Source of the DNA: an uncultured Neokomagataea sp.
GTDB taxonomy: Bacteria; Pseudomonadota; Alphaproteobacteria; Acetobacterales; Acetobacteraceae
DNA: 64,000 bases
NCBI GenBank assembly: GCA_946476835.1
Contig: CAMKWA010000009.1
Span: 24,017-88,016, forward strand
Reading direction: 5' to 3'
Part shown: piece by piece, positions 9,178 through 60,544 of the stretch
Numbering within the stretch: position 1 is the stretch's first letter
Layout of the letters: each line of letters starts with the position of its first letter
Notes under the pieces: model-generated
The model's database searches: none
Told to the model about the DNA's origin: nothing
The model's input: only the letters and a program-made list of their open reading frames with translations
Made by a program: the position numbers and the translations under genes

Positions 9178-10251
9178 TTAAGCGTCATCATCACCATCTT
9201 CGTCTTCTTCTGGCGGTAATGGAGCCGTTAAAACTCCACCCAACAACTCTTGCTCCACCAAACTCTCAGCAATTTGCACAGAGTTCAGTGCTGCACCCTT
9301 GCGCAAATTGTCAGACACGCACCACAAGGCCAAGCCATTCTCTACCGTTGGGTCAATGCGCAAACGTGAAACATAGGTGGCATCTTCCCCCACACATTCC
9401 AACGGCGTGACATAGCCGCCATCTTCACGCACATCACGCAGGATGACGCCCGGCGCTTTACGTAGCGCTTCACGTGCAGCACGCAAATCCACCGGCTTTT
9501 CACACTCAATACTAATTGCTTCAGAGTGACCAATAAAGACAGGCACACGCACACATGTCGCCAGCACTTTAATATCTGGATCCAAAATCTTGCGCGTTTC
9601 AACGGCCATCTTCCACTCTTCTTTCGTGGAGCCGTCATCCATAAAGCGATCAATATGTGGGATCACGTTAAACGCAATTTGCTTCGTGAACTGCGCAACC
9701 GTCGGCGGATCGCTCACGAAAGAACCCTTTGTCTGCGTAAAGAGTTCATCCATCCCGTCTTTACCCGCACCAGACACAGCTTGGTAAGTGGACACCACCA
9801 GACGCTTAATGCCGAATAAATCATGCAGAGGCTTCAACGCCACAACCATCTGCGCCGTGGAGCAGTTCGGGTTCGCAATAATATTCTTGCGCGCTTTCCG
9901 CAGAGCCTTCGCATTCACTTCCGGCACAACCAACGGAATACCCGGCTCCATGCGGAAATGGGACGTATTATCAATCACCACACAACCACTTGCCGCCGCA
10001 CGCGGTGCATGAACGGAAGACACCTTTGCACCAGGGGAGAACAAAGCAATGTCCCAGCCCTTAAAATCAAAAGTTTCAAGATTCTGAACCTTCAGAACCT
10101 TTTTATCTCCAAACGAAACCTCACGCCCAGCGGAACGCGGTGATGCCAGCGCGACAATCTCATCCACCGGAAAGTCACGCTCCGCCAGAGTTTTTAGAAT
10201 CTCACGACCAACCGCACCCGTGGCACCAACAACCGCAACCCGATAACCCAT
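9178..10251 (-). CDS. asd: Aspartate-semialdehyde dehydrogenase
   Basis: MGYRVAVVGATGAVGREIL NAD(P)-binding N-terminus and the active-site context NPNCST. It carries an unusual acidic C-terminal tail, PPEEDEDGDDDA. Confidence 0.9.
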   Translation of the reverse strand: MGYRVAVVGATGAVGREILKTLAERDFPVDEIVALASPRSAGREVSFGDKKVLKVQNLETFDFKGWDIALFSPGAKVSSVHAPRAAASGCVVIDNTSHFRMEPGIPLVVPEVNAKALRKARKNIIANPNCSTAQMVVALKPLHDLFGIKRLVVSTYQAVSGAGKDGMDELFTQTKGSFVSDPPTVAQFTKQIAFNVIPHIDRFMDDGSTKEEWKMAVETRKILDPDIKVLATCVRVPVFIGHSEAISIECEKPVDLRAAREALRKAPGVILRDVREDGGYVTPLECVGEDATYVSRLRIDPTVENGLALWCVSDNLRKGAALNSVQIAESLVEQELLGGVLTAPLPPEEDEDGDDDA

Positions 10252-10276
10252 AATCTTTAATCCGTTCCTGCCCTAA

Positions 10277-10969
10277 TTAACCGACAAGCGGCAGACGCTT
10301 GACCAATGACGAAAGGCGATGACGCCTCAACTCATAACGAGCCTTCTTGCTCGCCGCCATATAATTGAGCTGTATCGAATAACGCGTGCCAACAAACTGG
10401 CGATGTCCATGCCAAGCCGTCGGGCCATTGGGGAAGATCACCAACGTACCTTCCGCAGGCGTTACTTCAACATCATAATCTTCAATATCATCTGGGCCTT
10501 TCAAAAGACGCAGACACCCTTCATGAGATGACCAATCTTCACTGCTTGGATTCAAATACAGCAAAATTGTCACCAACTTCGCCGTCGAATCACAATGGAT
10601 CCGCCCATCCTTCTCACGCGTCCGCCCACGCATCGTCAGCATGGACGGAGCATCAGCCACATCAATGGCAAACTTCTCCGCCACCAGAGCTTTCAATTCC
10701 GGCCCCTCCAACGCGGCAATCAACGCCTGCACACGCGGCGTTAACGACAACGCTTCCGGCGGAAAAGAGCCGCCTGACGCCATCGGCGGCAACTCTTTCA
10801 CAAGCGCAGCAAGATCATCATTGCCAATGAAATGAGGCACCACAGCATGCGGGAAAGGCTTCTCCGCAACGGGCACACGCTTCAGGGCTTCATAATTGAG
10901 CGGAACACTGGTCATAGCGCGCATGACGCTACCCCCACACCCCACCAGTGGCAAGAGCTTCACATGCAA
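10277..10969 (-). CDS. 2OG-Fe(II) oxygenase superfamily protein
   Basis: HxD...H iron-binding pattern (IHCDS ... WHGH) with a double-stranded beta-helix-like core. The start may instead be the ATG at 10924. Confidence 0.6.
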   Translation of the reverse strand: MHVKLLPLVGCGGSVMRAMTSVPLNYEALKRVPVAEKPFPHAVVPHFIGNDDLAALVKELPPMASGGSFPPEALSLTPRVQALIAALEGPELKALVAEKFAIDVADAPSMLTMRGRTREKDGRIHCDSTAKLVTILLYLNPSSEDWSSHEGCLRLLKGPDDIEDYDVEVTPAEGTLVIFPNGPTAWHGHRQFVGTRYSIQLNYMAASKKARYELRRHRLSSLVKRLPLVG

Positions 10970-11055
10970 CCCTCACATTCCCATATGTGACGTTACGGTT
11001 TCACGGACCGTAAAAATGCGTTAGTTTGCACGGCTAAAACGACAGGAGATTTCCC

Positions 11056-13746
11056 ATGGGCGACGATCAGGACGCCATCAGCAGCGCCAATCTAGCCTAT
11101 CTGACGGCCCTCCATGAACAATGGTTAGAAGACCCCCAAACGGTTGACCCAACCTTTGCAGCTCTCTTCAGCACATTGGGCCTCAGCTTGCCTGTCTCCT
11201 CCAATGCGGCCACACACAATACCGCCAGCACCAGCCATGATGACGCCCTGCGCGCAGCCTACCGCCAACGTGGGCATGTCATGGCACAGCTCGACCCGCT
11301 TGGCCTGACCAATCCTCGCCCCCCTGCGGAACTCACGCCAGATGGGGCAAACCCCACCCTACGTGCCGCCCTTCAGCGCGCCTATTGTGGTACGCTCGCC
11401 ATTGAATTCATGCATATCCAAGACCCGGATAAGCGCCAATGGTGGATTGAACGTTTTGAACACCCACAACCTGCCACACACGCTACCGAGTTCATCCTCT
11501 CTGCGCTAACCGCCGCTGAAGGCTTTGAAACCTTCTGCCAAAAGCGTTTTAAAGCCATGCGCCGCTTCGGCTTAGAAGGCGGAGAAAGCCTCGTCGTTGC
11601 CCTGCGTGCCATTCTTGAACATGCTGCGGATGATCATACGGACTCTATGTCCATCGGTATGCCGCATCGCGGGCGGCTCAACGTCATGGCCAATGTTCTG
11701 CGGAAACCTTTTGAAGCCATCTTCAATGAATTCCGTGGCGGCTCTTTCAAACCCGAAGACATCGATGGCTCAGGGGATGTCAAATATCACCTTGGCACCG
11801 CCACAACCATCACACGACAAGGCCACGATATTCGTGTGTCTCTCCTACCGAACCCTTCTCATCTTGAAGCCATTAACCCGGTTGTTTTAGGGCGTATTCG
11901 CGCAGATCAAGACCAAAATGCCAACCCACGGCATCACCACCGCCACCACAACACAACACGCGGTGATAAGCATCTTGGCGTGCTTGTGCACGGAGATGCG
12001 GCCTTTGCAGGCCAAGGCGTAGTGTATGAAACACTCATGCTGTCTCAACTCGCTGGCTACCGGACAGGCGGCACCATCCACCTAATCATCAATAACCAGA
12101 TTGGCTTCACCACCGTCCCTGAAGATGGTTTCTCCGGGACACGCGGCACCGATATTGCCAAATCTATCGAAGCGCCCATTTTGCACGTCAATGGTGATGA
12201 CCCCGAGGCCGTGTTCCGCGCAGCCGCACTCGCCTATGAATGGCGCAAAGCCTTCCGGTCCGACATTGTCCTCGATATCGTGTGCTATCGCCGCTTTGGC
12301 CATAACGAAACAGACGAACCCGCTTTCACACAACCCACCATGGTGCGTGCTATCCGCGCCCGCTCCTCTGTGCGCCGTCTCTATGCCGATTCACTCATCC
12401 AACGCGGCATCGTGTCAGAAGCGCACATCGAAACACGTTGGAATAACGCACAGAACATTCTCGAAGCGGCCTATAGCGCCGCCCCAGACTATCGCCCAGA
12501 CCCTACTGAATGGCTTGATACACCACAGAACCCCACACGCCTTGAGGATGAGCCCGAGCGCATCCAACCCATGACCGGCGTCCCCCTGAAGCGCTTACGT
12601 CTTGCCGCTGATGGGTTATCCACCATTCCTGAAGGCCTGACGATACACCCACGCCTTGCCCGGCAAATCCTTGCGCGCGGAGAGGCTATCGCTGCCGGAA
12701 AGCCACTAGACTGGGCCAGTTGTGAAGCTCTGGCTTTTGGTACGCTCTCTATGGATGGGCACCCTGTACGCCTTTCCGGGCAAGATAGCCGCCGTGGTAC
12801 CTTCTCACAGCGCCATGCTGTCCTGATTGACCAAGAAACCGGACGGGAGGAAACACCTCTCGCTAATCTCGCTCCCCACCAAGCGCCACTCCATTTCTGG
12901 AACTCCCCCCTCTCTGAATATGCCGTACTGGGCTTTGAATATGGCTACTCTCTCGGCAATCCAGACGCACTCGTCGTATGGGAAGCGCAGTTTGGTGACT
13001 TCGTAAACGGCGCTCAAATTATTCTGGATCAGTTCATCGCCTCAGGTGAGACAAAGTGGCTGCGTACCTCTGGCCTCGTTCTCCTGCTACCACATGGCTA
13101 TGAAGGTGGGGGGCCAGAGCACTCCTCGGCACGCCCTGAACGTATTTTGCAGCTCTGCGCCGAGAACAACCTGCGTGTCTGCAATATCTCCACCCCCGCC
13201 AATTACTTCCACGCTTTACGCCGACAAATCGCCCGGCGCTGCCGCAAGCCCTTGGTGGTGTTCACTCCAAAATCGCTCCTACGCCACAAAGAAACCGTGT
13301 CTCCATTGGAGGATATGGGCCCACAAACCCGTTTCCACCCCGTCCTGCCAGACCCTGACTATAATGCAGGCGCAACAAGGATCATTCTTTGCACAGGCAA
13401 GGTTTTTTATGACCTTCTGGCCGAACGCCGGAGCGCGCAAAAAGACAATGTCGCCCTCATCCGCTTGGAGCAACTCTACCCATTCCCCGGCCGGGAGCTA
13501 CAACAAGAACTCGCCCGCTATCCAAATGCGCAAGAGATCCTCTGGTGCCAGGAAGAACCCCAAAATAATGGGGCATGGCATTTCGTTGACCGCCGCATTG
13601 AACGCGTCCTCACAGAAATGAACCTTCCCGTTCAACGGCCCGTCTATGTCGGTCGTGCCAGTGCCGCGTCCCCTGCAACTGGGCTAGCTCAGCTACACAC
13701 ATGGCAACAAGAAAGCCTCATTAAAACAGCCATTGGCACCGCCTGA
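11056..13746 (+). CDS. sucA: 2-oxoglutarate dehydrogenase E1 component / 2-oxoglutarate decarboxylase
   Basis: Typical SucA N-terminus, ThDP-binding region (GDAAFAGQGVV) and C-terminal transketolase-like domain. There is no sucB or lpd downstream. Confidence 0.9.
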   Translation: MGDDQDAISSANLAYLTALHEQWLEDPQTVDPTFAALFSTLGLSLPVSSNAATHNTASTSHDDALRAAYRQRGHVMAQLDPLGLTNPRPPAELTPDGANPTLRAALQRAYCGTLAIEFMHIQDPDKRQWWIERFEHPQPATHATEFILSALTAAEGFETFCQKRFKAMRRFGLEGGESLVVALRAILEHAADDHTDSMSIGMPHRGRLNVMANVLRKPFEAIFNEFRGGSFKPEDIDGSGDVKYHLGTATTITRQGHDIRVSLLPNPSHLEAINPVVLGRIRADQDQNANPRHHHRHHNTTRGDKHLGVLVHGDAAFAGQGVVYETLMLSQLAGYRTGGTIHLIINNQIGFTTVPEDGFSGTRGTDIAKSIEAPILHVNGDDPEAVFRAAALAYEWRKAFRSDIVLDIVCYRRFGHNETDEPAFTQPTMVRAIRARSSVRRLYADSLIQRGIVSEAHIETRWNNAQNILEAAYSAAPDYRPDPTEWLDTPQNPTRLEDEPERIQPMTGVPLKRLRLAADGLSTIPEGLTIHPRLARQILARGEAIAAGKPLDWASCEALAFGTLSMDGHPVRLSGQDSRRGTFSQRHAVLIDQETGREETPLANLAPHQAPLHFWNSPLSEYAVLGFEYGYSLGNPDALVVWEAQFGDFVNGAQIILDQFIASGETKWLRTSGLVLLLPHGYEGGGPEHSSARPERILQLCAENNLRVCNISTPANYFHALRRQIARRCRKPLVVFTPKSLLRHKETVSPLEDMGPQTRFHPVLPDPDYNAGATRIILCTGKVFYDLLAERRSAQKDNVALIRLEQLYPFPGRELQQELARYPNAQEILWCQEEPQNNGAWHFVDRRIERVLTEMNLPVQRPVYVGRASAASPATGLAQLHTWQQESLIKTAIGTA

Positions 13747-13812
13747 TCCGCGATCAGGCTTGCCAGTACCGTACCGCTTGGCTGTTATAGGCAGACACGC
13801 CGCTCAAACCTT

Positions 13813-14733
13813 GTGGGTCTTATGCTCCGTCCTGTCTGCCTGTTTGCTTATTTTGACCCCGCCCCAACCTTAGCGCCGCATACCCGCCACCTTTTGCACA
13901 ACATCCACCAAGCCGGGTTTGAGATTCACATTGCAGTTTCCAGCCTTAAACCCCATGACAATTCAGGCCTCATCACCCTTCAAAAAAGCTTTGCACAGGG
14001 GCCTACTCCCATTCCTGCACGGCTATACCCGCGCCTCAATCAGGGCCTCGATTTTGGAGCATGGCAAGATCTGATAAACACAGGCTGCATACAACACGCC
14101 TCTGAAATTCTACTTGCAAATGACAGCGTCTTTGGTGCCATTCAGCCTCTTCCGCCCATCATCGAAACCATGCGCAAACAGGCCTTACCTGTCTGGGGCA
14201 TGGTGCGTTCTGAAGCGGTAACCCAACACCTGCAATCATGGTTTCTCACCATAAACCGAGCAGCCTTCGAACATCCCGCGCTCCAACGCATCTTTACACA
14301 ACCCTTTCACAGCATGAGCAAAGACGAAATCGTTTTACATGGTGAGTTAGGCCTTGGCCTCGCTATGCGTCATGCAGGATGGGACCTAGCGGCATGCTGG
14401 TCGAGCCAACGCGGCCTTGCCAAATTGCTCGCAGCCAACCCGATGCACACAGACTGGCGCAATGTCCTCCTCTCAGGACGCGCACCCTTCATCAAAACCG
14501 AACTCTTGCGCGATAATCCCAGTGGTATCGCCGATACACATAAATGGCGTACCTACCTTGCCCAAGCATCTCAGACTCAACCCGGTTTCTTTCTGCCTGA
14601 GTGGATTGAACACTACCTCAACAACACACCACGCCGGATAACAGCACCTCGCCCCCGGCTACGCGCTCGTGCTGTCCAAGTCCTCGCCAGCCAAAACCGC
14701 TGGCAAGCCTTGCGCCATCTCATACTGACTTAA
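13813..14733 (+). CDS. Rhamnan-synthesis-F (RgpF)-like glycosyltransferase family protein
   Basis: LANDSVFGAI ... HLQSWFLTINR matches my recollection of the conserved NDS.fGP and H.QSyF blocks of RgpF-type proteins. The start is either GTG 13813 or ATG 13822. Confidence 0.55.
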   Translation: MGLMLRPVCLFAYFDPAPTLAPHTRHLLHNIHQAGFEIHIAVSSLKPHDNSGLITLQKSFAQGPTPIPARLYPRLNQGLDFGAWQDLINTGCIQHASEILLANDSVFGAIQPLPPIIETMRKQALPVWGMVRSEAVTQHLQSWFLTINRAAFEHPALQRIFTQPFHSMSKDEIVLHGELGLGLAMRHAGWDLAACWSSQRGLAKLLAANPMHTDWRNVLLSGRAPFIKTELLRDNPSGIADTHKWRTYLAQASQTQPGFFLPEWIEHYLNNTPRRITAPRPRLRARAVQVLASQNRWQALRHLILT

Positions 14734-14792
14734 ACAGACAAACGACCAAGCATCCACTTTAACACAACAGACCAACTATCCATCCAAAGCAC

Positions 14793-17477
14793 TTACCGCC
14801 CAGAAACACGCTTAAGATGCTCTAACAAATCATCACTTTGCGCATCAAACGTACACAACGTCTCCTTTAACCGATTTACATACCCATCAAAGCGTGAAGG
14901 TTCCGCCACCAACATACGCATAGCCTCAGCCAACGCCTCAGACCGCCCATCAATAGGAAGATAGGTTCCATTAACCCCCTCCACCACGTCTTCAGACTGC
15001 CCCCCCGGCGCAGTCGTCACAACCCACACATCCCGCGCCAATGCCTCACGTACAGTCAGGCCATAACTCTCTTTCCACTGAGAGGGGAATAACAACACAT
15101 CCACCTCGTCATAAAACGCATCTAACTCCGACTGAGCATATCCCGACACAACCTTCAGCGTTCCACGGATCGACCATTCATCATCACGGATCGACTGATA
15201 ACCAAGATTCCGCTTGTTATCGACCAATGTCAGGCTCCACCCGCCAACATCAATCCCCTCCGCCGCCTTCTTCAGCAGCTTATACCCCTTAATGTCTTCC
15301 GTGCCTCCGACATACGCAAAACGTACCCCTTCACCCGGGCGGCGCATTTTGCGCGGACGTTGCGGCCACGCAAAACCATTGCGATTAACGACGATCCGAT
15401 CGGCCGAAATCCCATTTGCAATATACAACTGCCGCTGCATTTCAGAAGGACAAAGTAACAAAGACGCCCGCTCCAAAGCGTGCATCATCAGTCGCTGACG
15501 GTCTGCCAAATATACTGTGTCAGACTGGCACTTACGGCATACATCCAAATCAATATTCGTCTGGAAGCAATACTGACCATCCGCTTTCACCATGAACTGG
15601 CGTTCACACAGCCACCATGCATCGTGCAATGTCACCACATACGGAACACCATGCACCTCACAGGCACGGAGTAAAGACAAGCCCAAACCCTGCACAGAAT
15701 GGATATGCACCACATCGGGCTGAAATGCTTCTAACCATGCTTCAAAATGCGGTGCATTCGACGGATTATCAATCCATCCAAAGCGATCACTAGTTTCCGG
15801 AATGGTCATCGCCAAAACGGGTACACCATCAACCGTATAGCGCAAACTGCCCGGTGATCGCCCCACCTCATCCGGTCGTGACGTTACGACCGAGACATCC
15901 ACCCCGCGGACCTTCAGCCCCCGAACCAGCTCTTCCGCCACAATGGTCGCGCCACCAAAAGAATACGGCTTATAATAAACATTCACTGCCAGAACACGTA
16001 AGGCCTGACGGTCCTGCACCGGCGGCGCACCATAGAGTGACTTTACCTGACGCTGCGCCACCTCATCTGGGTGGTAGCGCGCCAACACATCCTGCTTAGC
16101 ACGTTGCGCCAAAGCACTACGCAAGGCTCCATCCTCAGCGAGACGCAAAAATGCCCGACACCACTCCTCATCTGTCACAGCTAAAATACCATTCTCGCCT
16201 GACACCATGACCGAACGAAATGGACCACGCGGTGAACAAATACTCGCCACCTCTACAATAGAGGCCTCAACAAATTTAATATTGCTTTTGCAGTCATTGA
16301 AAAGTGTTTCTTGCAACGGCGCGATACTTATATCGCTATGTGATAAAACTTTCAAATACTCTGCATAGGGGCGCATCGGTAAGCGCTCAATACGCTCACC
16401 AAATCGCTCAAAACTCTGCGAAATCTGAACAGGCCCGACAACGCGCAAACACAACCGCTCATCACGTTCCATCGCCGTGAGCAAACCCTGCTCTGCCTGG
16501 CGAAAATCTGCGTCATGCGTATTGGTACCTGAGCCATAACACACCCAGACAGCTTCAGAATCGTCCCGTCTTTTCTTCGGTGGCAGAGCCTGAACAATAT
16601 TCAGCGTATCCAAGTCTAATGCATTTTCAATAACCCCGACATCACGCAGCCCGGCATCACGCATAGCTTGCGCTAGTGCCTCTGTGGACGCCAAACCCTC
16701 ACCACACGCCAACATCGCCTTACGAAAAAGACCTACCCCAAAAAACAATAAATCTTGCTCTGCCTTGGGTAACGTTTCTACATTCCCATTCTGCCGATAT
16801 TCCTGAAGATCAAAAATAAGATCATCAACTTCCCATCGTGGCGCCAACGCCAGTCGATGTGCTTCAGCAATCTGCGCCAGAACAGCATCAAATCCCGGTA
16901 CACGGTAAAAAATCACACATGTGCAGACCTGAAGTGCAGACATCACTTTGGCTTGATCGCGCCAATCAACAACTTCTACCCGCCACCCCAGACGCTCAAG
17001 AAGATCTTTTTTCTGCCAAACTCGGTACTTCGCACACTGAATAATAGCAAGTTCAGATATAATCAAAAATAACGGTGATAAATCAGAAATTATTCTTTTA
17101 TCAGATTCCCAATAAAATCCACCCTTACCTATTATTTCTTTTTTTCTTCGTATTTTTTTTATTAATTTATCAAATACATAGTCAATTTTCTGACGATTTT
17201 TAAGATAAAAAAATTCGTCCCTATACTCTCGGAGAGTTTTTCCATTTGGAAAGCGCCCATGCCGTAAACCACTCACACACCGTATAGGAGCCGTGATTTT
17301 CCACGAACGTGATGCACGAAGCTGCGCTAACTCTAACCTTAACTGATCACGCTCATTGATAAGGTCATCAAACCGTCGCCCTTGCAAACGTATAGAGCTT
17401 GAAAAATATGCTCTATCTTCTTCAGCCTCACTCTGAGACCCATTCTTTGCAGCTCGTGATGGAAAAATCCGCATCAA
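14793..17477 (-). CDS. Three-part glycosyltransferase
   Basis: N-terminal coiled coil with an SRSWKITAPIR motif. The central GT-B-like domain is paralogous to one in the 19255..21591 product. The C-terminal half has GT4 hallmarks (LRVLAVNVYY..., ESYGLTVREA, an E-x7-E type motif). Confidence 0.75.
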   Translation of the reverse strand: MMRIFPSRAAKNGSQSEAEEDRAYFSSSIRLQGRRFDDLINERDQLRLELAQLRASRSWKITAPIRCVSGLRHGRFPNGKTLREYRDEFFYLKNRQKIDYVFDKLIKKIRRKKEIIGKGGFYWESDKRIISDLSPLFLIISELAIIQCAKYRVWQKKDLLERLGWRVEVVDWRDQAKVMSALQVCTCVIFYRVPGFDAVLAQIAEAHRLALAPRWEVDDLIFDLQEYRQNGNVETLPKAEQDLLFFGVGLFRKAMLACGEGLASTEALAQAMRDAGLRDVGVIENALDLDTLNIVQALPPKKRRDDSEAVWVCYGSGTNTHDADFRQAEQGLLTAMERDERLCLRVVGPVQISQSFERFGERIERLPMRPYAEYLKVLSHSDISIAPLQETLFNDCKSNIKFVEASIVEVASICSPRGPFRSVMVSGENGILAVTDEEWCRAFLRLAEDGALRSALAQRAKQDVLARYHPDEVAQRQVKSLYGAPPVQDRQALRVLAVNVYYKPYSFGGATIVAEELVRGLKVRGVDVSVVTSRPDEVGRSPGSLRYTVDGVPVLAMTIPETSDRFGWIDNPSNAPHFEAWLEAFQPDVVHIHSVQGLGLSLLRACEVHGVPYVVTLHDAWWLCERQFMVKADGQYCFQTNIDLDVCRKCQSDTVYLADRQRLMMHALERASLLLCPSEMQRQLYIANGISADRIVVNRNGFAWPQRPRKMRRPGEGVRFAYVGGTEDIKGYKLLKKAAEGIDVGGWSLTLVDNKRNLGYQSIRDDEWSIRGTLKVVSGYAQSELDAFYDEVDVLLFPSQWKESYGLTVREALARDVWVVTTAPGGQSEDVVEGVNGTYLPIDGRSEALAEAMRMLVAEPSRFDGYVNRLKETLCTFDAQSDDLLEHLKRVSGR

Positions 17478-17502
17478 TGCCTAATACCGCCTTAACCACA
17501 AC

Positions 17503-17535
17503 CCAAAGAAAAAGCCCGGCACAAGACCGGGCTTT
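17503..17535 (-). terminator. Rho-independent terminator after the repeat-protein gene
   Basis: Stem agcccgg/ccgggct with a 7-nt loop. It is followed on the minus strand by TTTTTCTTT and lies between the stop at 17564 and the next gene's start at 17477. Confidence 0.7.
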
Positions 17536-17563
17536 CTCATGAAGCATTACCTAAGCTAGAATA

Positions 17564-18916
17564 TTAGCTCAGTGTAAAGTTGCTTGCCTTCAGGTTCGTA
17601 ATACCCACGAACGTGATCTTGGAGTTGTCGCTCAGCTGAATTGTGGTGTTGCCACCAGCAACCGTAGCATTCTGAAGAACGCTCTGCAGGCCGTTGTTGT
17701 TTTGCAGACCGTACTGGTACAGAGCCATAAGGTTACCAGCTGCGCTACCGAAGTCTTGGATGGTGTAGTTACCACCAGCAGCGCCCTTGTTCAGAGCAAA
17801 CAAGTTAGCAGCACCCGTGCCACCAACCAGCGTTGCGTTACCTGTGCCACCAACCAGCGTATCCGCACCGTTGCCGCCGGTAATCGTTTCGTTGCCTGTA
17901 CCAGCGAAAGCATGCAGAATGCCCGTGGTGCTCGCAGCAGAAACCGTTTCATTGCCTTCGCCACCAACAAACAGGTTCGTGCCAGAACCGGTCAGTTGTG
18001 CATTCAGAGCGCCTGCACCGAAGATTGTTGACGTACCAGCGGAGATCGTCGTGCTGCCCGTACCATTCAGGAAGGTCAGTGCGCCAGAAACGCTGATGTT
18101 GTTCGCCGTACCGCGTACAACCTGCAAATTGCTTGCTGCAGAAACAGTGTTGTTTGAACCGCCAACAACCGTTGAAAGGCTACCGGTTGAGAAGTAAGAG
18201 CTTGCACTACCAGCCGCGACGTAGCTGTTCGTACCAAACGAAACGTTATTGCCCTGTGCACCGTCAATGATCGTGCTGTTTGCACCCAGAGAAACCTGAG
18301 AGCTACCACCGATCAGCGTAACTGTGTTGGTGCCAGATGTACCCTTAATCGTGTCCTGACCTTCGGACAGAACAGAATTCACACCGGAACCCAGCGTAAT
18401 CAGATTGTTGCCAACGCCACCTGCAATAGTGTTGTTACCATTCGTAGCATTGATCGTGTCGTTGCCAGTACCTGTAGCAATGTTCCAGTTTCCGGTGCCA
18501 TTTGTACCGGAGAACAGGTTATTGCCAACGCCACCAACGAAAATACCGCTCTGGCTACCAGCAACAACCGTTGTACCAGCCCAGTCACCAGCCAGAACAT
18601 TAACACCAGATACAGTGCTGTTCGTCAGGTCAAGCTGAACAGCTGAGTTCAGCGTATCTGATGGGCCATACGAACCAACCGTAATGTTGGAAAGTGAACC
18701 ACCAATGCTGTAATTGCCACCAGAAGAAACTAGGCCATGCTGAGCAGAAACGCCCGTTGTAGACCCTGGCACCAGATCCAGAACAGACGAACCATTAGCT
18801 GCAAAAATACCACCAACGCCGGCTGCGTACTGATTAGCCAATGCCTGAGCACGGGCGCCATCTACCGTAACTGAAAAGGCGTTTTGCGAAGCCCCTTGGA
18901 CTGTAACGACCGCCAT
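17564..18916 (-). CDS. Secreted-type Gly/Asn/Ser/Thr-rich beta-helix/beta-roll repeat protein with degenerate RTX nonapeptides
   Basis: It has no signal peptide and no Cys, and it is acidic. Residues 347-373, GGNGADTLVGGTGNATLVGGTGAANLF, follow the GGxGxDxUx pattern. A strong SD (GAGGAG) precedes the ATG, and the gene has its own terminator. Confidence 0.7.
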   Translation of the reverse strand: MAVVTVQGASQNAFSVTVDGARAQALANQYAAGVGGIFAANGSSVLDLVPGSTTGVSAQHGLVSSGGNYSIGGSLSNITVGSYGPSDTLNSAVQLDLTNSTVSGVNVLAGDWAGTTVVAGSQSGIFVGGVGNNLFSGTNGTGNWNIATGTGNDTINATNGNNTIAGGVGNNLITLGSGVNSVLSEGQDTIKGTSGTNTVTLIGGSSQVSLGANSTIIDGAQGNNVSFGTNSYVAAGSASSYFSTGSLSTVVGGSNNTVSAASNLQVVRGTANNISVSGALTFLNGTGSTTISAGTSTIFGAGALNAQLTGSGTNLFVGGEGNETVSAASTTGILHAFAGTGNETITGGNGADTLVGGTGNATLVGGTGAANLFALNKGAAGGNYTIQDFGSAAGNLMALYQYGLQNNNGLQSVLQNATVAGGNTTIQLSDNSKITFVGITNLKASNFTLS

Positions 18917-18992
18917 AACTTAGTACTCCTCGAAAACTAAGATTGCGTACACTGGCGGTCGGATGACCACCCCGTTTTAATGAGTGACGCTG

Positions 18993-19022
18993 ACTATAAT
19001 CAAACGTTGCCTCACGACGCAA
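18993..19022 (-). promoter_or_regulatory. Candidate sigma70-type promoter for the repeat-protein gene
   Basis: The minus strand reads TTGCGT, then 18 nt, then TATAGT, about 75 nt upstream of the ATG at 18916. Confidence 0.3.
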
Positions 19023-19254
19023 TCACCGATCAGTCTCTTGCGTACATAAAGTCAAAGTCAACTCTAAATACTCACAAAAGAAAACGGCGCTACCGCCTCA
19101 GACAACACATTAGGCACTCTCACTACCATACACAAAAAGCATTATCAGAGCAAGAGTTTCCACCTTTTTCACAAGGATCAAACAAAACACTTTTAAATAA
19201 AAAAAAATATGTCAAAAACAATACAAAGGTTTAACTAAAATAACAGAGCGAAAA

Positions 19255-21591
19255 ATGAACCCGGAACACTCAAGAGCAACAAAAGAAATTAAATTAAATA
19301 GTGAATTAACATCAAAAAACACTCAAAAAAATCAAGTAAAAATCACAAAACACACTAACGATAAAAAAGAAACCTTAAATAATGAGTTTATTAAGTTGAA
19401 ATCATTAACCTTCTCAGAAAAACTCAACAACAAATCACTCCAATCCGAAATTAAGGAAATGAAAGAAAAGATAAAAAATTACGAAGAATCATTAAAATAC
19501 ATGGAATCAGAACTTAAAAGTAAAAATAAAAGAAAAATATATGAAATATTTAAAAATAAAAACACAGTAGAGTATAAATACATAACAGAAAACAAAAAAT
19601 TGCGCGTATTGTTTATTTCTGGAGAACCAAATACACCTGGGACTAACTATAGATGTTCTCGCAGCGCCCAAGCATGTATTGATTCTGGATACGAATCCCG
19701 CGTACTTCCATGCGCTGCCATCTCTTATGAGGATATTCAATGGGCCGATATTGCATTCTTATGGCGTGTAGAGTTTAGCGGTCACGTAAGTACAATATTT
19801 GACCTGTGCAAAAAAGAAAATGTCATAACAGTATTCGATACCGATGATATCGTATTCGTTCCTCATTATGCTCGAATAAATATCATTGATGGAATACGGT
19901 CTATTGGCGCCACTGAAGAGAAAATCGAAAGAACATTCTCTGAAATGCGCCGAACGCTTGCACGATGTGATTATGGATCTGTTACAACCCAAGAACTTGC
20001 AACCGAGATGCACGCCCTGCGCCCCAATGTTCATCTCTTACCAAACGTCTATAATCATGAGACTCTCCATCGTTCCCGTAGCCACCTTCGCCTACGTGGA
20101 GAGCCTGGCCGAGAACCTAGCCCGCTCGACATTATTCGAATCGGCTACGCAACCGGATCACGCACACATCAACGCGATTTCGCTCGCGCTTCAAAAGCGA
20201 TTGCAGAAATCCTATCGCTTTATCCCAATGTTCGACTCGTTTTATTTCAAGAAAAAGACAATAAAAAACCCGTTCTACTTATCGAAGAGTTCCCAGAACT
20301 AATCGCTGTTGCGAATCAAATTGAATGGAGGGACATGACACCTCTCTCAGAATTAGCTTACGAATTTGCACGATTCGATATTTCTATTGCCCCTCTCGAA
20401 TCCGACAACGTTTTTTGCAATGCAAAAAGTGAAGTCAAATTCCTAGAAGCCTCCCTCGCCGGGGCCGCATCAATCGTGGCGCGGACGGGCCCATTCCTCC
20501 GCCTCGTTCGTGATGGTGAAACCGGCCTTTTTGCGGATAGCATTGAAGAATGGCGCGAAACCTTAATCACACTTATCGAAAACCCCGCCCAGCGCATCCG
20601 CCTAGCGCGCAACGCTTACCATGACGTTTTGTATAGTTTTGGCCCCGTAGCCCAAGCACGCCGCATGAAACGGGCTATTCTCTCTATGCAAAGTGAAGAA
20701 AAAGCCGCCCTTGCCGGAGAACTACATTTTGCCGAAATGCTACGCGGCCGCCCAGAACTACCCGTCATCCCGGAAAGTGAAACGCTCTTTTATAATGACC
20801 GCCTTGGCGACGCACGCGTTACCGTCGTCATCACATCTTATAATTATGCAGATTACCTTCTAGACGCCCTCACCTCTGTTGAAGAACAAACCGAGGAGCT
20901 TCTTGACCTCATTGTCATTGATGACGGCTCATCCGACGGGTCACCGGAGATCATTCGTTTGTGGATGGAGCGCAAAACAACACGCTTTAACCGCCTTGTC
21001 TTACGCCGCTCTTGTGAAAATTCAGGCCTTGGCGGTGCCCGCAACATCGGCATGGATGCCGCCGAAACGCCGTATATTGTCCACCTTGATGCCGATAATC
21101 GCCTCCGCCCGAATGCATGCCGCACACTTGCTGATGCCATGGAGCATGATACCGCTTTCTCCTACCCTACCATTGAGTGCTTCAACGAACACGGCCCCGT
21201 CATCGCGGACTATGACCCGGACTTTCCACAACCACCCGGCACCCCACTCTCCCTCAGTAACCTACGCTACAACCCCTTTGCTCTCGTCTCAGGCAATCAA
21301 ATTGATGCTATGGCGCTCGTCACAAAATGGGCATGGGCTGCCGTTGGTGGGTATTACGTCTCTCGTGACGCTATGGGCTGGGAAGATTTTGACCTCTGGT
21401 GCAGCTTTGCAGAACACGGCTTTGCCGGAAAACATGTTCCAGAAGTTCTCGCAGAATACCGCCATCATGCTGGCGCAATGACAAATACGTCAACAGAAGT
21501 GGCTGACCGAAAAGAGAGAATCGTGAACTTCGTTCAAAAGCGCCATCCGTGGATACGCCTCTCGGTCGCCGGAGCCAAACAGCGGCAATAA
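19255..21591 (+). CDS. Multidomain glycosyltransferase
   Basis: The N-terminal extension is Lys/Asn/Glu-rich and coiled-coil-like. The central domain is a GT-B-like paralog of the one in the 14793..17477 product. The GT2 block reads VTVVITSYNYADYL...VIDDGSSDGS...HLDADN. The first ~115 codons are encoded by very AT-rich DNA yet stay stop-free. Confidence 0.75.
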   Translation: MNPEHSRATKEIKLNSELTSKNTQKNQVKITKHTNDKKETLNNEFIKLKSLTFSEKLNNKSLQSEIKEMKEKIKNYEESLKYMESELKSKNKRKIYEIFKNKNTVEYKYITENKKLRVLFISGEPNTPGTNYRCSRSAQACIDSGYESRVLPCAAISYEDIQWADIAFLWRVEFSGHVSTIFDLCKKENVITVFDTDDIVFVPHYARINIIDGIRSIGATEEKIERTFSEMRRTLARCDYGSVTTQELATEMHALRPNVHLLPNVYNHETLHRSRSHLRLRGEPGREPSPLDIIRIGYATGSRTHQRDFARASKAIAEILSLYPNVRLVLFQEKDNKKPVLLIEEFPELIAVANQIEWRDMTPLSELAYEFARFDISIAPLESDNVFCNAKSEVKFLEASLAGAASIVARTGPFLRLVRDGETGLFADSIEEWRETLITLIENPAQRIRLARNAYHDVLYSFGPVAQARRMKRAILSMQSEEKAALAGELHFAEMLRGRPELPVIPESETLFYNDRLGDARVTVVITSYNYADYLLDALTSVEEQTEELLDLIVIDDGSSDGSPEIIRLWMERKTTRFNRLVLRRSCENSGLGGARNIGMDAAETPYIVHLDADNRLRPNACRTLADAMEHDTAFSYPTIECFNEHGPVIADYDPDFPQPPGTPLSLSNLRYNPFALVSGNQIDAMALVTKWAWAAVGGYYVSRDAMGWEDFDLWCSFAEHGFAGKHVPEVLAEYRHHAGAMTNTSTEVADRKERIVNFVQKRHPWIRLSVAGAKQRQ

Positions 21592-21767
21592 TACGTCGAG
21601 CATTCACAAGCAGAGCAAGAGCCGTATGGTGCAAAAAACGCCAACGGCTCCCCGAACACTTTACCTACACACAAAAGAAGCCAAAGGTAGTTCTATCAAT
21701 ATAATAAAACACGAGAACCTCTGCTCCTCCGACCACAAATCGGGCTGCACAAAGAGCATAAAATACC

Positions 21768-23789
21768 TTAAGCCTGCGGAATATTTTGCTCGATATCATC
21801 AAGCCATATACGCGCATTCCCATCTGATGGAGCCCGCCAATCTCCGCGGGGCGACAATGAACCACCCGCCACAATTTTGGGGCCGTTCGGCATCGCAGAA
21901 CGCTTAAACTGACTCGTCGCAAAAAAGCGCCGCATAAAGACTGTCATCCAATGGCGAATATCCGCCAAAGTATACGCCTTACGTTGATCCTCTGGATAAT
22001 GAACAGGCCACTGTCCAACCCCCAGATCCGACCAGGCCTTCTCCGCCATAAACGCAATACGTGACGGCTTAAACCCGTAGCGCAACACATAATACAGCGT
22101 AAAATCCTGCAAAGCATACGGCCCGATAAAAGACTCGGTACTCTGTACCCCTTGCCCAGAATCCGGCACCAACTCAGGCGATATCTCTGCACTGACAATA
22201 GTATTCAAAATCTCTGGAAGATCCGTACCCAACTTACCTTCACGAGCAATCCAACGAATCACATGCTGTATCAACGTCTTCGGCAAACCCGCATTCACAT
22301 TATAATGCGCCATCTGGTCACCCACGCCATACGTGCACCAGCCCAAAGCAAGCTCCGATAAGTCACCAGTTCCCACGACAATACCATGATGATGGTTTGC
22401 CAAACGGAACAGAAAATCCGTTCGCAAACCCGCCTGAACATTTTCAAACGTCACATCATGAACCGCCTCCCCACGCGCATAAGGATGACCTATACCACTC
22501 AACATTGTGCGCGCCGTTGGGCGGATATCCAGTTCCTCCGCCTGCACACCAAGAGCTGCCATCAAACGATGCGCATACCCCAAACTTTCAGCGCCTGTCC
22601 CAAAACCCGGCATCGTATAAGCCCGCACCTGATTGCGTGACCAACCAAGCTCATCCGCTGCACGAACAGCCACCAACAACGCCAACGTACTGTCTAAACC
22701 GCCAGAGACACCAATCACAGCACAGGCTGAACGGCTCGCTTCCAAACGTCGCCGCAAAGCACTGACCTGTATCGTCCATGCCTCGTAACAATCACGCGCC
22801 AATGTCTGAGACGAATCCGGGACAAACGGAAAACGCGCCACCGTTCGTAAAAGACCTAAATCTTCTAATGACGGGTCTAGAGTAAACTCCACCACACGGA
22901 AGCGCTCTGCACCATCCCCGAACTGCCCAACCCGCATACGCTCCTGCCGCAACAAGGCAAGATCGACATCCGCCATCACCAAACGCTCCCCTTGCGGAAA
23001 ACGCTCCGATTCCGCGAGTAAACGCCCGGCTTCATGAATCGTCACTTGCCCATCCCAAGCAAGATCGGTCGTCGATTCCCCTTCCCCAGCGGCCGCATAC
23101 ACATACGCTGTTAAAGTCCGCATGGATTGGGACTGGCACAGCAACATACGATCATCCGTTCGCCCGACCGTTACAGGTGAAGCTGAAGGATTCAGAATAA
23201 TGCGCGCCCCTGCCTGCGCCAACGCGCCACTTGGTGGGTTCGCAACCCACAAATCCTCACAAATTTCTACACCAAACACCAAATCCGGCACATCATGCGC
23301 CCGGAACAAAAGGTCCGTCCCAAACGGAACCTCTTCACCACCCCACAACACCGTCGTGGACACATGACGACCAGAGGTAAAATGCCGTGGCTCATAAAAC
23401 TCGCGATAACGCGGCAAATACGTTTTGGGCACAAATCCAAGAACTTGCCCCCGCTGCACAACCGCAGCAACGTTATACAGGCGCTCCCCAACCACCCATG
23501 GCAGCCCTAAAACCGCAACCGTTTTACAGGTTTCAACACGCGCACAAAATGCCTTCAAAGCATCCCGCGTTGCATCCAAAACAACATCCTGAAAACGCAA
23601 ATCATCCAACGTATATCCCGTGAGGCCAAGCTCTGGGAAAACGATAACCGCCACACCCTCACGGTCACATCGCTGCACAATGTCCGCCATGCGTTCCGCA
23701 TTAGCCGCTGGATCCGCCAATATCACTGGCAATGTACACGCGGCAACACGCGCAAAACCCTGATGGTACAGAGAATGGAATACACCCAT
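21768..23789 (-). CDS. nadE: Glutamine-dependent NAD+ synthetase (long form with N-terminal CN-hydrolase domain)
   Basis: An N-terminal nitrilase-like domain followed by the GVSGGLDSTLAL PP-loop motif. Confidence 0.9.
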   Translation of the reverse strand: MGVFHSLYHQGFARVAACTLPVILADPAANAERMADIVQRCDREGVAVIVFPELGLTGYTLDDLRFQDVVLDATRDALKAFCARVETCKTVAVLGLPWVVGERLYNVAAVVQRGQVLGFVPKTYLPRYREFYEPRHFTSGRHVSTTVLWGGEEVPFGTDLLFRAHDVPDLVFGVEICEDLWVANPPSGALAQAGARIILNPSASPVTVGRTDDRMLLCQSQSMRTLTAYVYAAAGEGESTTDLAWDGQVTIHEAGRLLAESERFPQGERLVMADVDLALLRQERMRVGQFGDGAERFRVVEFTLDPSLEDLGLLRTVARFPFVPDSSQTLARDCYEAWTIQVSALRRRLEASRSACAVIGVSGGLDSTLALLVAVRAADELGWSRNQVRAYTMPGFGTGAESLGYAHRLMAALGVQAEELDIRPTARTMLSGIGHPYARGEAVHDVTFENVQAGLRTDFLFRLANHHHGIVVGTGDLSELALGWCTYGVGDQMAHYNVNAGLPKTLIQHVIRWIAREGKLGTDLPEILNTIVSAEISPELVPDSGQGVQSTESFIGPYALQDFTLYYVLRYGFKPSRIAFMAEKAWSDLGVGQWPVHYPEDQRKAYTLADIRHWMTVFMRRFFATSQFKRSAMPNGPKIVAGGSLSPRGDWRAPSDGNARIWLDDIEQNIPQA

Positions 23790-26142: not shown

Positions 26143-27717
26143 ATGACAGCCCGCCTTCACTGGACCGGCGTCCGGATGAGGACGCTTCAGGTCACCACCG
26201 ACCCTGATGACAGCGCTACCCGTGCCGTCACCCTCCCCGCTGCATGGGATGATGCCGCTGCGGAAGCGCTTGCGCGTCTTGCACCGGGAGAAGGCCCCGT
26301 ACGTCTCGCGACTGAAGCTGCGCGCTGGGTTGATACAATTGATGCGTGCCTGCCCCTTCCCGGCACCCCGGCCAATACGCCTCCCCTTGGGCAGGCATTA
26401 TCATGCCTCTTATTGCTCCGGCAGATTGCTCCAAATGCTGCCATATGGCAGCGTGACCCTGAAGGAACACCCGGCTTTGTCCTGCGTCTTTCAGCGTTTG
26501 TTGAAGATGGGGCATTCGCGGGAGAGCATTTTGCCACGTCCCTAGCGGTTATCTGTGACGCGCTGCGCCGCCTTCAGGGCGACCAAGCATCCGAACGCAG
26601 CGGCGCATTACCGCTCTTCGATGCACCAGACATCACTCCCAAAGACCCAGCTGGCCTCATCTTACTGACCGATCTGGATGCTTTCCTTGCAGCCATTGGC
26701 CTTGATTATGATAGCGATGATGGCCGCGCTGCAGCCCAAGCCCTCACAGCGCTCACCACCACTATCGCTCGGGCTGGCACCTTACTCACCGGCCCCGATA
26801 TCCCAGACTCTCCCTTAAACGGCTTACGTGATTTTGCAGCCCGCTCTTTGCCAGAGGCCGCAGCGCATCATGATGCACTCACCCTAGCCCCAATCCAAAC
26901 CGGCTTTTCTAGCCCCGGCCCTGTTGATGGGTTGTTGGATGTTGAGGCCTGCGGCCTAAGCCCTATCTTTTCACCCACGCGCGAAGATGGGCGTTTGCGG
27001 CAAGCCACACTCAATCGTTTGGAACACCGCGGCTTGCAGCCTCACTCCGCTTTGGCGTTAGCACTCTCCGGCACCAACCCTCTGCCACCAACAAGCCCCG
27101 AAGCGCATGAACGTATGCATCATGCCCTACAGGGTTTAACAGATTTCATGCCGGAATTACCCGAACCCGAATATGCGCGCATGCGTGCCAAACTGGAGCG
27201 TGGCGTACGCCGCCCCTTACCGAATCGACAACGCGGCTTCACTCAGCGCACTGCCATTGGCGGTCACAGCCTCTTCATGCGCACAAGTGAGTTCGATGAT
27301 GGCTCACTCGGTGAAATCAATCTCGTACCGGCACGCGAAAGTGCAATGGCACGCGGCCTGATGGAATGCCTCGGCCAGGCTGTGAGTATCGGCCTACAGC
27401 ACGGCGCACCTTTAGGGGCCTTTGTTGAACGATTCGCTTACACGCGCTTCGGAGCAGCAGGCACCGTCGAAGGTGACCCCAATATGAGCTATGCTTCCTC
27501 TATGGTGGATTACGCCTTCCGGACCCTGTCAGAAGCCTATCTTAATCACCCCCTGCCAGATGCTCCTCAACTCTCCGTAGAGAAAGAGGACCCCGCCCCT
27601 ATGCTCCCCCTTGATATTCGTGGTGGCACACAAGACACAGCCGCACACGGAATTGAGAAAAGCAATGGAGAAGGGGGGGCAAAAGGCCGCCGTAGACGCC
27701 TGCGCTTGGTCAGTTGA
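26143..27717 (+). CDS. Hypothetical protein with a C-terminal region resembling the C-terminal (TSCPD-type) segment of class II ribonucleotide reductases
   Basis: The C-terminal segment (IGGHSLFMRTSEFDDGSLGEINL...GLQHGAPLGAFVERFAYTRFGAAGTVEGDPNM.YASSMVDYAFRTL) recalls the NrdJ C-terminal block. The N-terminal ~350 aa are Ala/Leu/Pro-rich and unassigned. The start may instead be ATG 26176. Confidence 0.4.
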   Translation: MTARLHWTGVRMRTLQVTTDPDDSATRAVTLPAAWDDAAAEALARLAPGEGPVRLATEAARWVDTIDACLPLPGTPANTPPLGQALSCLLLLRQIAPNAAIWQRDPEGTPGFVLRLSAFVEDGAFAGEHFATSLAVICDALRRLQGDQASERSGALPLFDAPDITPKDPAGLILLTDLDAFLAAIGLDYDSDDGRAAAQALTALTTTIARAGTLLTGPDIPDSPLNGLRDFAARSLPEAAAHHDALTLAPIQTGFSSPGPVDGLLDVEACGLSPIFSPTREDGRLRQATLNRLEHRGLQPHSALALALSGTNPLPPTSPEAHERMHHALQGLTDFMPELPEPEYARMRAKLERGVRRPLPNRQRGFTQRTAIGGHSLFMRTSEFDDGSLGEINLVPARESAMARGLMECLGQAVSIGLQHGAPLGAFVERFAYTRFGAAGTVEGDPNMSYASSMVDYAFRTLSEAYLNHPLPDAPQLSVEKEDPAPMLPLDIRGGTQDTAAHGIEKSNGEGGAKGRRRRLRLVS

Positions 27718-31144: not shown

Positions 31145-31229
31145 AACCGCTCACCATGGCAGCGTCCTCGCTGCCATTTTTTTGCGTGACTGAACCAGAA
31201 ACTCCACTGGTGAACTTGGACATGCCTTC

Positions 31230-53110: not shown

Positions 53111-53356
53111 AAAGTGCCACCCAATCCAACGTCATGCATGGCGAACATCGCAGAGCACAACAATGACTGAAGCAGACATAAGACGTCACACCATCAATTT
53201 CAACGATATAATATGGTATTACCTTTTATTTTAGTGATTTTATACAAAAACCTCCCGCCTGACAGCACGGAGCGCTCATGCTAAATTCATTGGACAAAAC
53301 ACTTGGCCATAATCATACCAATCGGCCTCACACGAGCGGCACGCAAGGAGCGTAGG

Positions 53357-60516: not shown

Positions 60517-60544
60517 CACGCTCACAATAAGGTAATATTTCCGC

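Follow-up and report, generated by a model that had tools for sequence, protein, structure and literature searches.

The DNA analysed here, 64,000 nucleotides of an uncultured Neokomagataea sp. (the 64-kb window), carries between sucA and nadE a block of four genes, which encode an RgpF-like glycosyltransferase, a two-module glycosyltransferase of 894 residues (GT894), a charge-poor RTX-like beta-roll protein of 450 residues (RTX450) and a second two-module glycosyltransferase of 778 residues (GT778). Evolution has maintained this block as a unit in five or more genera of acetic acid bacteria, and its linkage is far beyond chance. We tentatively read it as a conserved surface module, in which the enzymes build a glycan dependent on an ABC transporter and RTX450 is an exoprotein functionally tied to that glycan. 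As a whole this reading falls a little short of probable; one part of it taken alone, that GT894, GT778 and the RgpF-like protein are glycan polymerases of the ABC-transporter-dependent type, we consider quite probable.

In the mechanism that we propose, the three glycosyltransferases would be cytoplasmic multi-module enzymes polymerising an O-antigen-like or capsule-like glycan on undecaprenyl phosphate, their coiled-coil-like N-termini would be the hallmark of the Wzm/Wzt assembly strategy, and the genes for primer, exporter and sugar nucleotides would be located elsewhere in the genome. RTX450 would be abundantly expressed by means of its own promoter, a strong Shine-Dalgarno sequence, a leader hairpin and a strong terminator, the last of which would let only read-through transcription reach GT894. 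The protein would be exported by a type I system through its RTX-type C-terminus, its near-uncharged surface rich in Asn, Ser, Thr and Gly would suit an acidic habitat, and at the cell surface it may be held by the polymer or coat it, as RsaA is held by the O-antigen of Caulobacter.

Conservation of the block

The RgpF-like gene (13813-14733, + strand) is convergent with the gene of GT894 (14793-17477, - strand), next to which lies the gene of RTX450 (17564-18916, - strand), and the gene of GT778 (19255-21591, + strand) is divergent from the latter. The host chromosome segment is Neokomagataea-like, with housekeeping proteins 97-99% identical to those of N. anthophila and RTX450 90% identical. 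As the original prediction had stated, the block contains no Wzx/Wzy, Wzm/Wzt, priming transferase or sugar-nucleotide genes, and it is not a self-contained polysaccharide locus. Domain and profile searches extended to the whole window likewise found no Wzx/Wzy, Wzm/Wzt, priming transferase or type I secretion genes; a UDP-glucose dehydrogenase is encoded elsewhere in the window (42580-43905).

Loci from 54 species-representative genomes were fetched and the window proteins were mapped onto them. Sufficient flanks were present in 47 loci, which span Neokomagataea, Gluconobacter, Brytella, Gluconacetobacter and Acetobacter; this set is biased to closer relatives because it was retrieved with the closer homologue set, and Komagataeibacter and Asaia were examined separately. 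GT778 and GT894 are both encoded beside the RTX gene in 45 of the 47 loci and the RgpF-like protein also in 42, so the gene neighbourhood, whose conservation across Acetobacteraceae had been put forward for checking, is indeed kept. The usual arrangement is a divergent GT778 gene, the RTX gene, the GT894 gene and a convergent rgpF gene. The flanks of the block vary (sucA in Neokomagataea, HU in Gluconobacter and Gluconacetobacter, an inverted nadE in Acetobacter), rgpF is displaced by 1-4 kb in some Acetobacter, the internal gene order is changed in the intact block of A. indonesiensis (L050), and a Brytella locus (L028) has a tandem RTX duplication within the block. The persistence of the block despite altered flanks and internal order argues for selection on the linkage.

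One might argue that the genes are not functionally coupled at all: a single ancestral insertion would have placed the RTX gene between two divergent glycan genes of the acetic acid bacteria, and slow rearrangement would have kept it there. Consistent with this, the wider neighbourhood (MlaD, DUF2155, DsbB, nadE ... HU, proC) is itself syntenic across genera, and the RTX gene is found in some loci without the glycosyltransferases, as they are in others without it. However, an uncoupled insertion has to face the cohesion of the block in the rearranged loci just described, a spacing of only 9-50 bp between the RTX and GT894 genes in Gluconacetobacter, and an independent co-location of an RTX homologue with a multi-glycosyltransferase gene in Azospirillum. 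We regard it as quite unlikely.

The glycosyltransferases of the block

The four open reading frames, their domains and a GT-B module shared by the two large enzymes had been noticed from the sequence alone, and the list of open reading frames, Pfam and BLASTP agree with this at all points. The RgpF-like protein (306 aa, pI 9.9) matches the rhamnan synthesis F family PF05045 at 41.9 bits over aa 73-234. The probable true start of GT894 is the ATG at 17474. Its AlphaFold2 model (pLDDT 86.9, pTM 0.83) consists of N-terminal helices followed by two GT-B domains. The helices (aa 15-116, 17130-17435, - strand; H15-55, H57-72 and H95-116 by DSSP) are long, coiled-coil-like and include the motif 'SRSWKITAPIR', with a pLDDT of only about 50-85. 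They are followed by the first GT-B module, termed X (aa 137-482, 16032-17069, - strand; PF13524 at aa 330-476), and by a GT4 module (aa 494-892, 14802-15998, - strand; PF13579, PF13439 and PF00534, with the Pfam GT4 match at aa 507-860). The X module is paralogous to aa 231-475 of GT778 (29.6% identity over 247 aa, E = 6e-23), and the residues D218, D219, H321, D324, K397, K401 and E404 are invariant in it among 28 homologues, which suggests an active enzyme. Foldseek matched the GT894 model to GT4 enzymes (MshA, GlgM and BshA, TMt 0.65-0.75) and to the capsule multienzyme 8qoy, and the profile search against the PDB also returned GT4 enzymes; these matches are generic and uninformative about the acceptor.

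GT778 begins with a low-complexity, coiled-coil-like N-terminus (aa 1-115, 19255-19599, + strand), which is rich in Lys, Asn and Glu and heptad-like by eye. The G+C content of these first 115 codons is 23.5% (25% at third positions), whereas the remainder of the gene has about 50% and the whole window 53%. The tblastn matches to GT778 in other genera start only at about aa 117; the N-terminus is specific to Neokomagataea, and the orthologues of Gluconobacter and Gluconacetobacter carry an unrelated N-terminus of about 300 residues. This segment may be a coiled-coil 'ruler' that evolves fast, or it may have been replaced recently. The GT-B X module of GT778 (aa 118-477, 19606-20685, + strand; PF13692, PF13524 and PF00534, GT1-like at aa 306-470) precedes a GT2 module (aa 521-745, 20815-21489, + strand; PF00535, 93.8 bits), and NCBIfam gave partial TuaG, EpsE and PglI-like matches. 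Among the block enzymes Pfam and NCBIfam detected GT4, GT2, PF13524 and RgpF only, and no BAHT, GT41, Maf or oligosaccharyltransferase families.

Relatives in wzm/wzt loci

The glycan part of our reading is carried by the company that these enzymes keep in other bacteria. Orthologues of GT894 with 45-48% identity sit in wzm/wzt loci. The Microvirga locus L055 encodes Wzm, Wzt, two RgpF proteins (one a 34% identical relative of the protein of the block), a methyltransferase, a GT894 orthologue (48%) and a methyltransferase-GT1-GT2 protein, and an operon in L062 encodes Wzm, Wzt with a Wzt_C domain, a GT2, a GT894-like protein and another GT2. A metagenome scan for the GT894 family yielded 79 loci, 33 of them long. 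A Wzm homologue is encoded in at least 12 of the 79 (8 of the 33 long ones), a lower bound because three seed sequences only were used. In four loci (L078, L096, L098 and L107) wzm-wzt abut or overlap the GT894-like gene, and L109 brings wzm, wzt, GT778-like, GT894-like and rgpF genes together, the RTX gene being absent. Altogether wzm/wzt stand beside orthologues or homologues of the block enzymes in L055, L059, L062, L078, L096, L098, L104, L107 and L109. The genes of both large glycosyltransferases are in tandem in L102 and L120, and in L063 the genes of a methyltransferase-X-GT2 protein and a GT894-like protein are divergent, as in the window; the RTX gene is absent from all three. The GT778-type protein of L063 has the architecture methyltransferase-coiled coil-X-GT2, with an N-terminal Methyltransf_24 domain, and shares 44% identity over 784 aa with the orthologue of Gluconacetobacter diazotrophicus PAL5. 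After its coiled coil it carries the motif 'SxxWRxxAPLR' (SAGWRMLAPLRR), as GT894 does after its helices. A methyltransferase terminator was also considered for the GT778 orthologues of Gluconobacter and Gluconacetobacter and rejected, since Pfam detected none and only a short tail (PAL5) aligned to the L063 protein.

A coiled-coil protein with a terminator and two glycosyltransferase modules has been described as 'a characteristic marker' of ABC-transporter-mediated glycan assembly, with Escherichia coli O9a WbdA/WbdD, Klebsiella O12 WbbB and Klebsiella O7 ORF6 as examples, and a further cluster broadly of this sort is noted in G. diazotrophicus PAL5 (PMC11231755). The block enzymes resemble these systems in that they are peripheral cytoplasmic proteins with a putative coiled coil and two glycosyltransferase modules and no Wzx/Wzy, and in that their orthologues, some of which start with a methyltransferase domain, occur in wzm/wzt (Wzt_C) operons. 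In contrast to the WbdA/WbdD, WbbB and ORF6 loci, the block of the acetic acid bacteria has neither an exporter nor a terminator module. The families of the modules also differ from those of WbdA and WbbB (a PF13524-type GT-B plus GT4 or GT2), and the likeness seen is one of architecture, not of sequence-level membership in the WbdA or WbbB families.

The RTX450 protein

RTX450 has a predicted mass of 43.4 kDa and matches Pfam HemolysinCabind (PF00353) at 39.6 bits, above the cut-off of 23. Its AlphaFold2 model, built with 68 homologues (pLDDT 94.6, pTM 0.90), is one long continuous beta-roll with regular short strands throughout, closed by a small N-terminal cap with one helix (aa 21-41) and by a C-terminal cap. 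In the search of the family profile against the PDB, the RTX domain of CyaA was matched at 1e-23. The region of aa 304-443 (17588-18007, - strand) is homologous to the RTX and capping part at the C-terminus of type I secretion substrates, with profile matches to residues 475-605 of the Pseudomonas MIS38 lipase (3e-10), residues 334-445 of serralysin (2.5e-7) and PrtC. The best Foldseek matches in the PDB were also RTX domains of CyaA and lipases, none with E < 0.001, and for this reason an enzymatic or S-layer fold is not assignable. A catalytic domain was not detected, the whole protein being beta-roll.

The protein is composed of 23.6% Ser plus Thr, 11% Asn and 18% Gly, with 11 Asp, no Cys and a pI of 4.2, and its charged residues (DEKR) amount to 4.7% as against 21-27% in the neighbouring proteins. 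It contains a single canonical GGxGxD repeat (aa 347), and its other turns are GGxGNN or similar. By its sequence RTX450 is an RTX-derived protein with Asn replacing most of the calcium-binding Asp, and calcium dependence is doubtful for a protein with one canonical turn and Asn in the others. The N-terminus (MAVVTVQGASQNAF) has no hydrophobic core, that is, no signal peptide, and we therefore propose that RTX450 leaves the cell by type I secretion through its RTX-type C-terminus. No signal peptide, beta-barrel or two-partner secretion (TPS) domain was found in the sequence, by Pfam or in the model.

RTX450 homologues are found throughout Acetobacteraceae. The locus L061 of Asaia sp. BMEF1 contains two RTX450 paralogues (10001-11817 and 18761-20577), each followed by a conserved 111-aa open reading frame without a Pfam family, which may encode a dedicated partner of the paralogue; these paralogues adjoin Hint_2 proteins.

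Is RTX450 glycosylated by its neighbours?

The original prediction offered the possibility that the glycosyltransferases modify the adjacent protein, with AIDA-I/Aah, TibA/TibC and HMW1/HMW1C as precedents. A beta-helical surface protein gene adjoins a glycosyltransferase gene in these pairs as in the block, and there the likeness stops. AIDA-I, TibA and HMW1 are Sec-dependent autotransporter or TPS proteins and RTX450 is neither; Aah, TibC and HMW1C are single-module BAHT heptosyltransferases or GT41 enzymes, to which the block enzymes do not belong; and the TibA structure matched RTX450 in Foldseek with E = 1.3 only. A pairing of this type is not supported.

A more general form of the idea is that cytoplasmic O-glycosylation of RTX450 at Ser and Thr by the flanking enzymes precedes its type I export, or that an oligosaccharyltransferase attaches their glycan, and that the product is a glycoprotein coat comparable to SwmA, oscillin and Sll1951, or to Geobacillus SgsE with its adjacent slg cluster. 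The tight and ancient linkage, with an RTX-GT894 operon in Gluconacetobacter, the high Ser and Thr content of RTX450 and the extra conserved GT-B module of unassigned acceptor specificity in each large enzyme are all in favour of it. A TPR-containing glycosyltransferase follows the Azospirillum homologue of RTX450, and in FlmG, a flagellin glycosyltransferase, the substrate is bound by a TPR module (PMC7591256). Glycosylated RTX surface proteins do exist: the cyanobacterial SwmA, oscillin and Sll1951 carry glycans (PMC3034196), but they are much larger than RTX450, have canonical Asp-rich repeats, and their glycosylation enzymes are undefined. However, the same enzyme set is found in wzm/wzt operons without an RTX gene, RTX homologues occur without the enzymes in Komagataeibacter, and families that would be expected to modify proteins were not detected in the block (see above). 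Enrichment in Ser and Thr as a glycosylation signature was tried and rejected: homologues with adjacent glycosyltransferases have 23.5% and those without them 22.9% and 22.5%, which is no difference. Additionally, an unfolded substrate carrying the long polymers that coiled-coil multi-module enzymes make would be unlikely to fit through a type I channel, and type I substrates bypass the periplasm, which is where en-bloc glycan transfer occurs. Modification of the adjacent protein thus found no support in the form first proposed, and we consider a dedicated protein glycosylation system unlikely. A further-reaching version, in which most acetic acid bacteria are coated by a glycoprotein or glycan-bound layer of an RTX-derived, near-charge-free and possibly calcium-independent beta-roll that is glycosylated by the flanking enzymes before type I export, appears very unlikely to us. 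If true, it would mean a new cytoplasmic glycosylation route for type I substrates and an acid-adapted surface layer.

Expression signals of the RTX450 gene

The RTX450 gene had been called monocistronic, and an intrinsic terminator directly 3' of its stop codon (17508-17538, - strand), with a stem of 13 pairs (7 of them G-C) and a following T-run, supports this description. Of 52 related loci, 45 have a comparable hairpin with a T-rich tail after the RTX stop codon, and the hairpin sequence differs by genus. The exception is Gluconacetobacter, where the distance of 9-50 bp from the RTX stop to the GT894 start, with no terminator, indicates that the two genes form an operon. The divergent intergenic region between RTX450 and GT778 (18917-19254) contains a GAGGAG Shine-Dalgarno sequence before RTX450, a tentative promoter (-35 TTGCGT at 19022-19017, -10 TATAGT at 18998-18993) and a leader stem-loop. 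The promoter is tentative because the consensus scan did not call this -35/-10 pair. The leader, with its stem-loop GGTGGTC/GACCGCC, folds at -26.3 kcal/mol (z = -2.5), and the leader with the putative promoter (18917-19022) is alike in Neokomagataea and Gluconobacter (TTGC.T ... TATA.T and the hairpin GGTGGTC/G.CCGCC; loci L003-L025). No recognisable conservation of it was seen in Acetobacter or Gluconacetobacter, and an Rfam search of 13000-22500 with E up to 1 gave zero matches. This layout leads us to infer a structural gene expressed in bulk, from which low-level read-through enters the enzyme gene.

A regulatory tie of the RTX gene to flagellar genes was considered and rejected, as no sigma-28, sigma-54 or CtrA motif lies upstream; a CtrA-like match was present upstream of the RTX gene in just 1 of 53 loci. 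The flagellar genes flhF, flhA, fliH, fliG and fliF are at 1.1-9 kb of the window, and the mapping onto related loci indicates that this neighbourhood of the block is Neokomagataea-specific.

An independent co-location in Azospirillum

A tblastn search of 72,556 plasmids with RTX450 (low-complexity filter on) gave matches in Azospirillum only. On plasmid p5 of A. brasilense Sp7, the gene of a 342-aa calcium-binding protein (AMK58_RS28880) lies directly upstream of the gene of a 1396-aa TPR-GT2-GT4 protein (AMK58_RS28885). The former is a true homologue of RTX450, with 35% identity over 300 aa and the shared C-terminal ending 'LSD..ITxxGVTNLxASNF', although it is shorter and its N-terminus is different; the latter is orthologous to neither GT894 nor GT778. 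Judged by these sequences, Azospirillum is an independent case of an RTX450 homologue co-located with a multi-glycosyltransferase gene. Unlike the block in the window, the Azospirillum locus is plasmid-borne and complete, as it also holds wzm, wzt (Wzt_C), methyltransferases, an acyltransferase and further glycosyltransferases. No characterisation of this locus was found in the literature either.

Discussion

The closest precedent for the module is the S-layer protein RsaA of Caulobacter crescentus, which is anchored by the O-antigen and whose gene, together with rsaDE, has the O-antigen genes clustered near it. RTX450 resembles RsaA in being RTX-like, in having no signal peptide and a C-terminus of the type I substrate kind, in its high-expression signals and in its place beside O-antigen-type glycan genes. 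It differs in its length (450 aa as against 1026 aa), in the Asn in place of most calcium-binding Asp and in the lack of adjoining secretion genes of the rsaD/E type. Homology to RsaA was not found, as Foldseek gave E = 2.0 and a TM of 0.19 for the structure 6z7p (the N-terminal anchoring domain was unmatched) and RsaA was absent from the PDB profile matches. The lattice and the anchoring of RsaA are known, whereas RTX450 is compared here from its gene and predicted fold. The other option of the original prediction, a glycan that anchors the protein as in RsaA, fits the evidence better than the adhesin pairs do; that RTX450 is itself anchored to the glycan or forms an S-layer may be supposed by analogy. 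RTX exoproteins whose genes accompany those of an O-antigen-type glycan are a theme already known, and the block is no new kind of system. As had been stated, no characterised equivalent from Acetobacteraceae was found in the literature, and neither was experimental work on the RTX450 family or the module.

A different role for RTX450 would be that of an accessory factor for synthesis, export or processing of the polymer, and not of a structural surface protein. ExpE1/WgeA is a secreted calcium-binding RTX-like protein that Sinorhizobium meliloti needs for galactoglucan production, and Rhizobium PlyA/B and RapA are type-I-secreted glycanases and lectins. Such a role agrees with an RTX gene among glycan glycosyltransferases in both acetic acid bacteria and Azospirillum, with weak NCBIfam matches of RTX450 to a calcium-binding repeat family of Sinorhizobium and to the glycanase EglC in its RTX part, and with the fact that beta-helical proteins often bind polysaccharides, to which weak Foldseek matches to alginate epimerase R-modules can be added. 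However, the NCBIfam scores are far under the cut-offs: the sole rhizobial family match, SMc04171, reached 31 bits as against a cut-off of 625, so that RTX450 does not belong to the ExpE1/WgeA type by this measure. No S. meliloti homologue appeared in the tblastn of plasmids (the megaplasmids are expected in the collection; low-complexity filter on), and the ExpE1/WgeA cluster has a dedicated type I exporter, ExpD1/D2, while the block has none. Also the absence of a catalytic domain or a Foldseek match with E < 0.001 from an all-beta-roll protein, and the many loci that have the glycosyltransferase set without such a protein, do not fit an accessory factor well, and the strong terminator and Shine-Dalgarno sequence point to bulk expression, which would be unusual for it. 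We consider this role improbable.

Several observations weigh against the surface module that we favour, in which a protein and an ABC-transporter-dependent glycan belong together. On the side of the glycan, WecA/WbaP-type primer, WaaL, wzm/wzt and type I secretion genes are absent from the 64-kb window, Pfam recognised no chain-terminator module in the Neokomagataea block proteins, and no methyltransferase was found by Pfam in the orthologues of PAL5 (Gluconacetobacter) and G. albidus (Gluconobacter). On the side of the protein, its 11 Asp make calcium-dependent folding, and hence the classical type I secretion mechanism, uncertain; genes for a type I secretion ABC transporter, membrane-fusion protein or TolC-type protein were found neither in the window nor in the 10-kb flanks of the PAL5, G. 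albidus and K. europaeus loci; and no report of an S-layer in these acetic acid bacterial genera was found in the literature. As regards the tie between the two, RTX genes near the GT894 family outside the acetic acid bacteria gave weak matches in 3 of about 28 long loci, which by a rough estimate for alphaproteobacteria is about chance. Komagataeibacter europaeus has an RTX homologue at the same site (nadE, RTX, HU) with zero glycosyltransferases, G. wancherniae (L026) has kept the RTX homologue at the site without them, and in Asaia, Commensalibacter and one metagenomic relative the RTX homologues are elsewhere, with no glycosyltransferase neighbours. The persistence of RTX homologues without the glycosyltransferases means that the protein is not strictly dependent on the glycan.

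Other features of the window

A second repeat-protein/glycosyltransferase pair occupies 57943-62491, where the gene of an 857-aa, charge-poor protein rich in Ser, Thr, Gly and Asn and ending in Hint_2 (PF13403) is followed after 29 bp by a gene whose 648-aa product has a GT1 module at its C-terminus. At 30338-32903, right after atpB and two b subunits of the ATP synthase F0, the gene of an ArnC/PgfS-like GT2, similar to undecaprenyl-phosphate sugar transferases, precedes that of an ArnT/PMT-like membrane glycosyltransferase of 557 aa, a pair that by its sequence is likely to serve lipid A/core or other periplasmic glycosylation. The 524-aa protein encoded at 26143-27717 has a TSCPD domain only and matches just the C-terminal ~120 residues of B12-dependent ribonucleotide reductase; a stand-alone, fragment-like TSCPD gene is also present in Komagataeibacter (L060). 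Two open reading frames have no Pfam match. The first (53303-54541, 412 aa), with a hydrophobic N-terminal segment, Ser/Thr/Ala-rich repeats and a Pro/Thr/Ala-rich tail of ~130 aa, may encode a surface or periplasm-spanning protein; the second (40653-42338, 561 aa), with a signal-peptide-like N-terminus and a C-terminal aromatic residue, looks like an outer-membrane beta-barrel or porin. The GC skew is negative in every 1-kb bin (-0.04 to -0.31) whatever the gene orientation, and the cumulative skew falls monotonically, which indicates that the whole window is on one replichore and has an unusually strong strand asymmetry.

Significance for acetic acid bacteria

Acetic acid bacteria are used in industry for vinegar, vitamin C and cellulose, they live as plant endophytes and they are dominant symbionts of insect guts, and their surface proteins are essentially unstudied. 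The block is a core-genome module throughout the history of Acetobacter, Gluconobacter, Gluconacetobacter and relatives, and Komagataeibacter and G. wancherniae, which lost the glycosyltransferases independently, offer natural comparisons. The Asn-for-Asp scaffold of RTX450 bears on the folding of beta-rolls and on type I secretion at low pH. By pairing glycan polymerases with a presumably highly expressed, near-uncharged beta-roll of the secreted type, the block becomes a candidate determinant of acid tolerance, of pellicle formation or adhesion to host surfaces, and of recognition by phages or the immune system.

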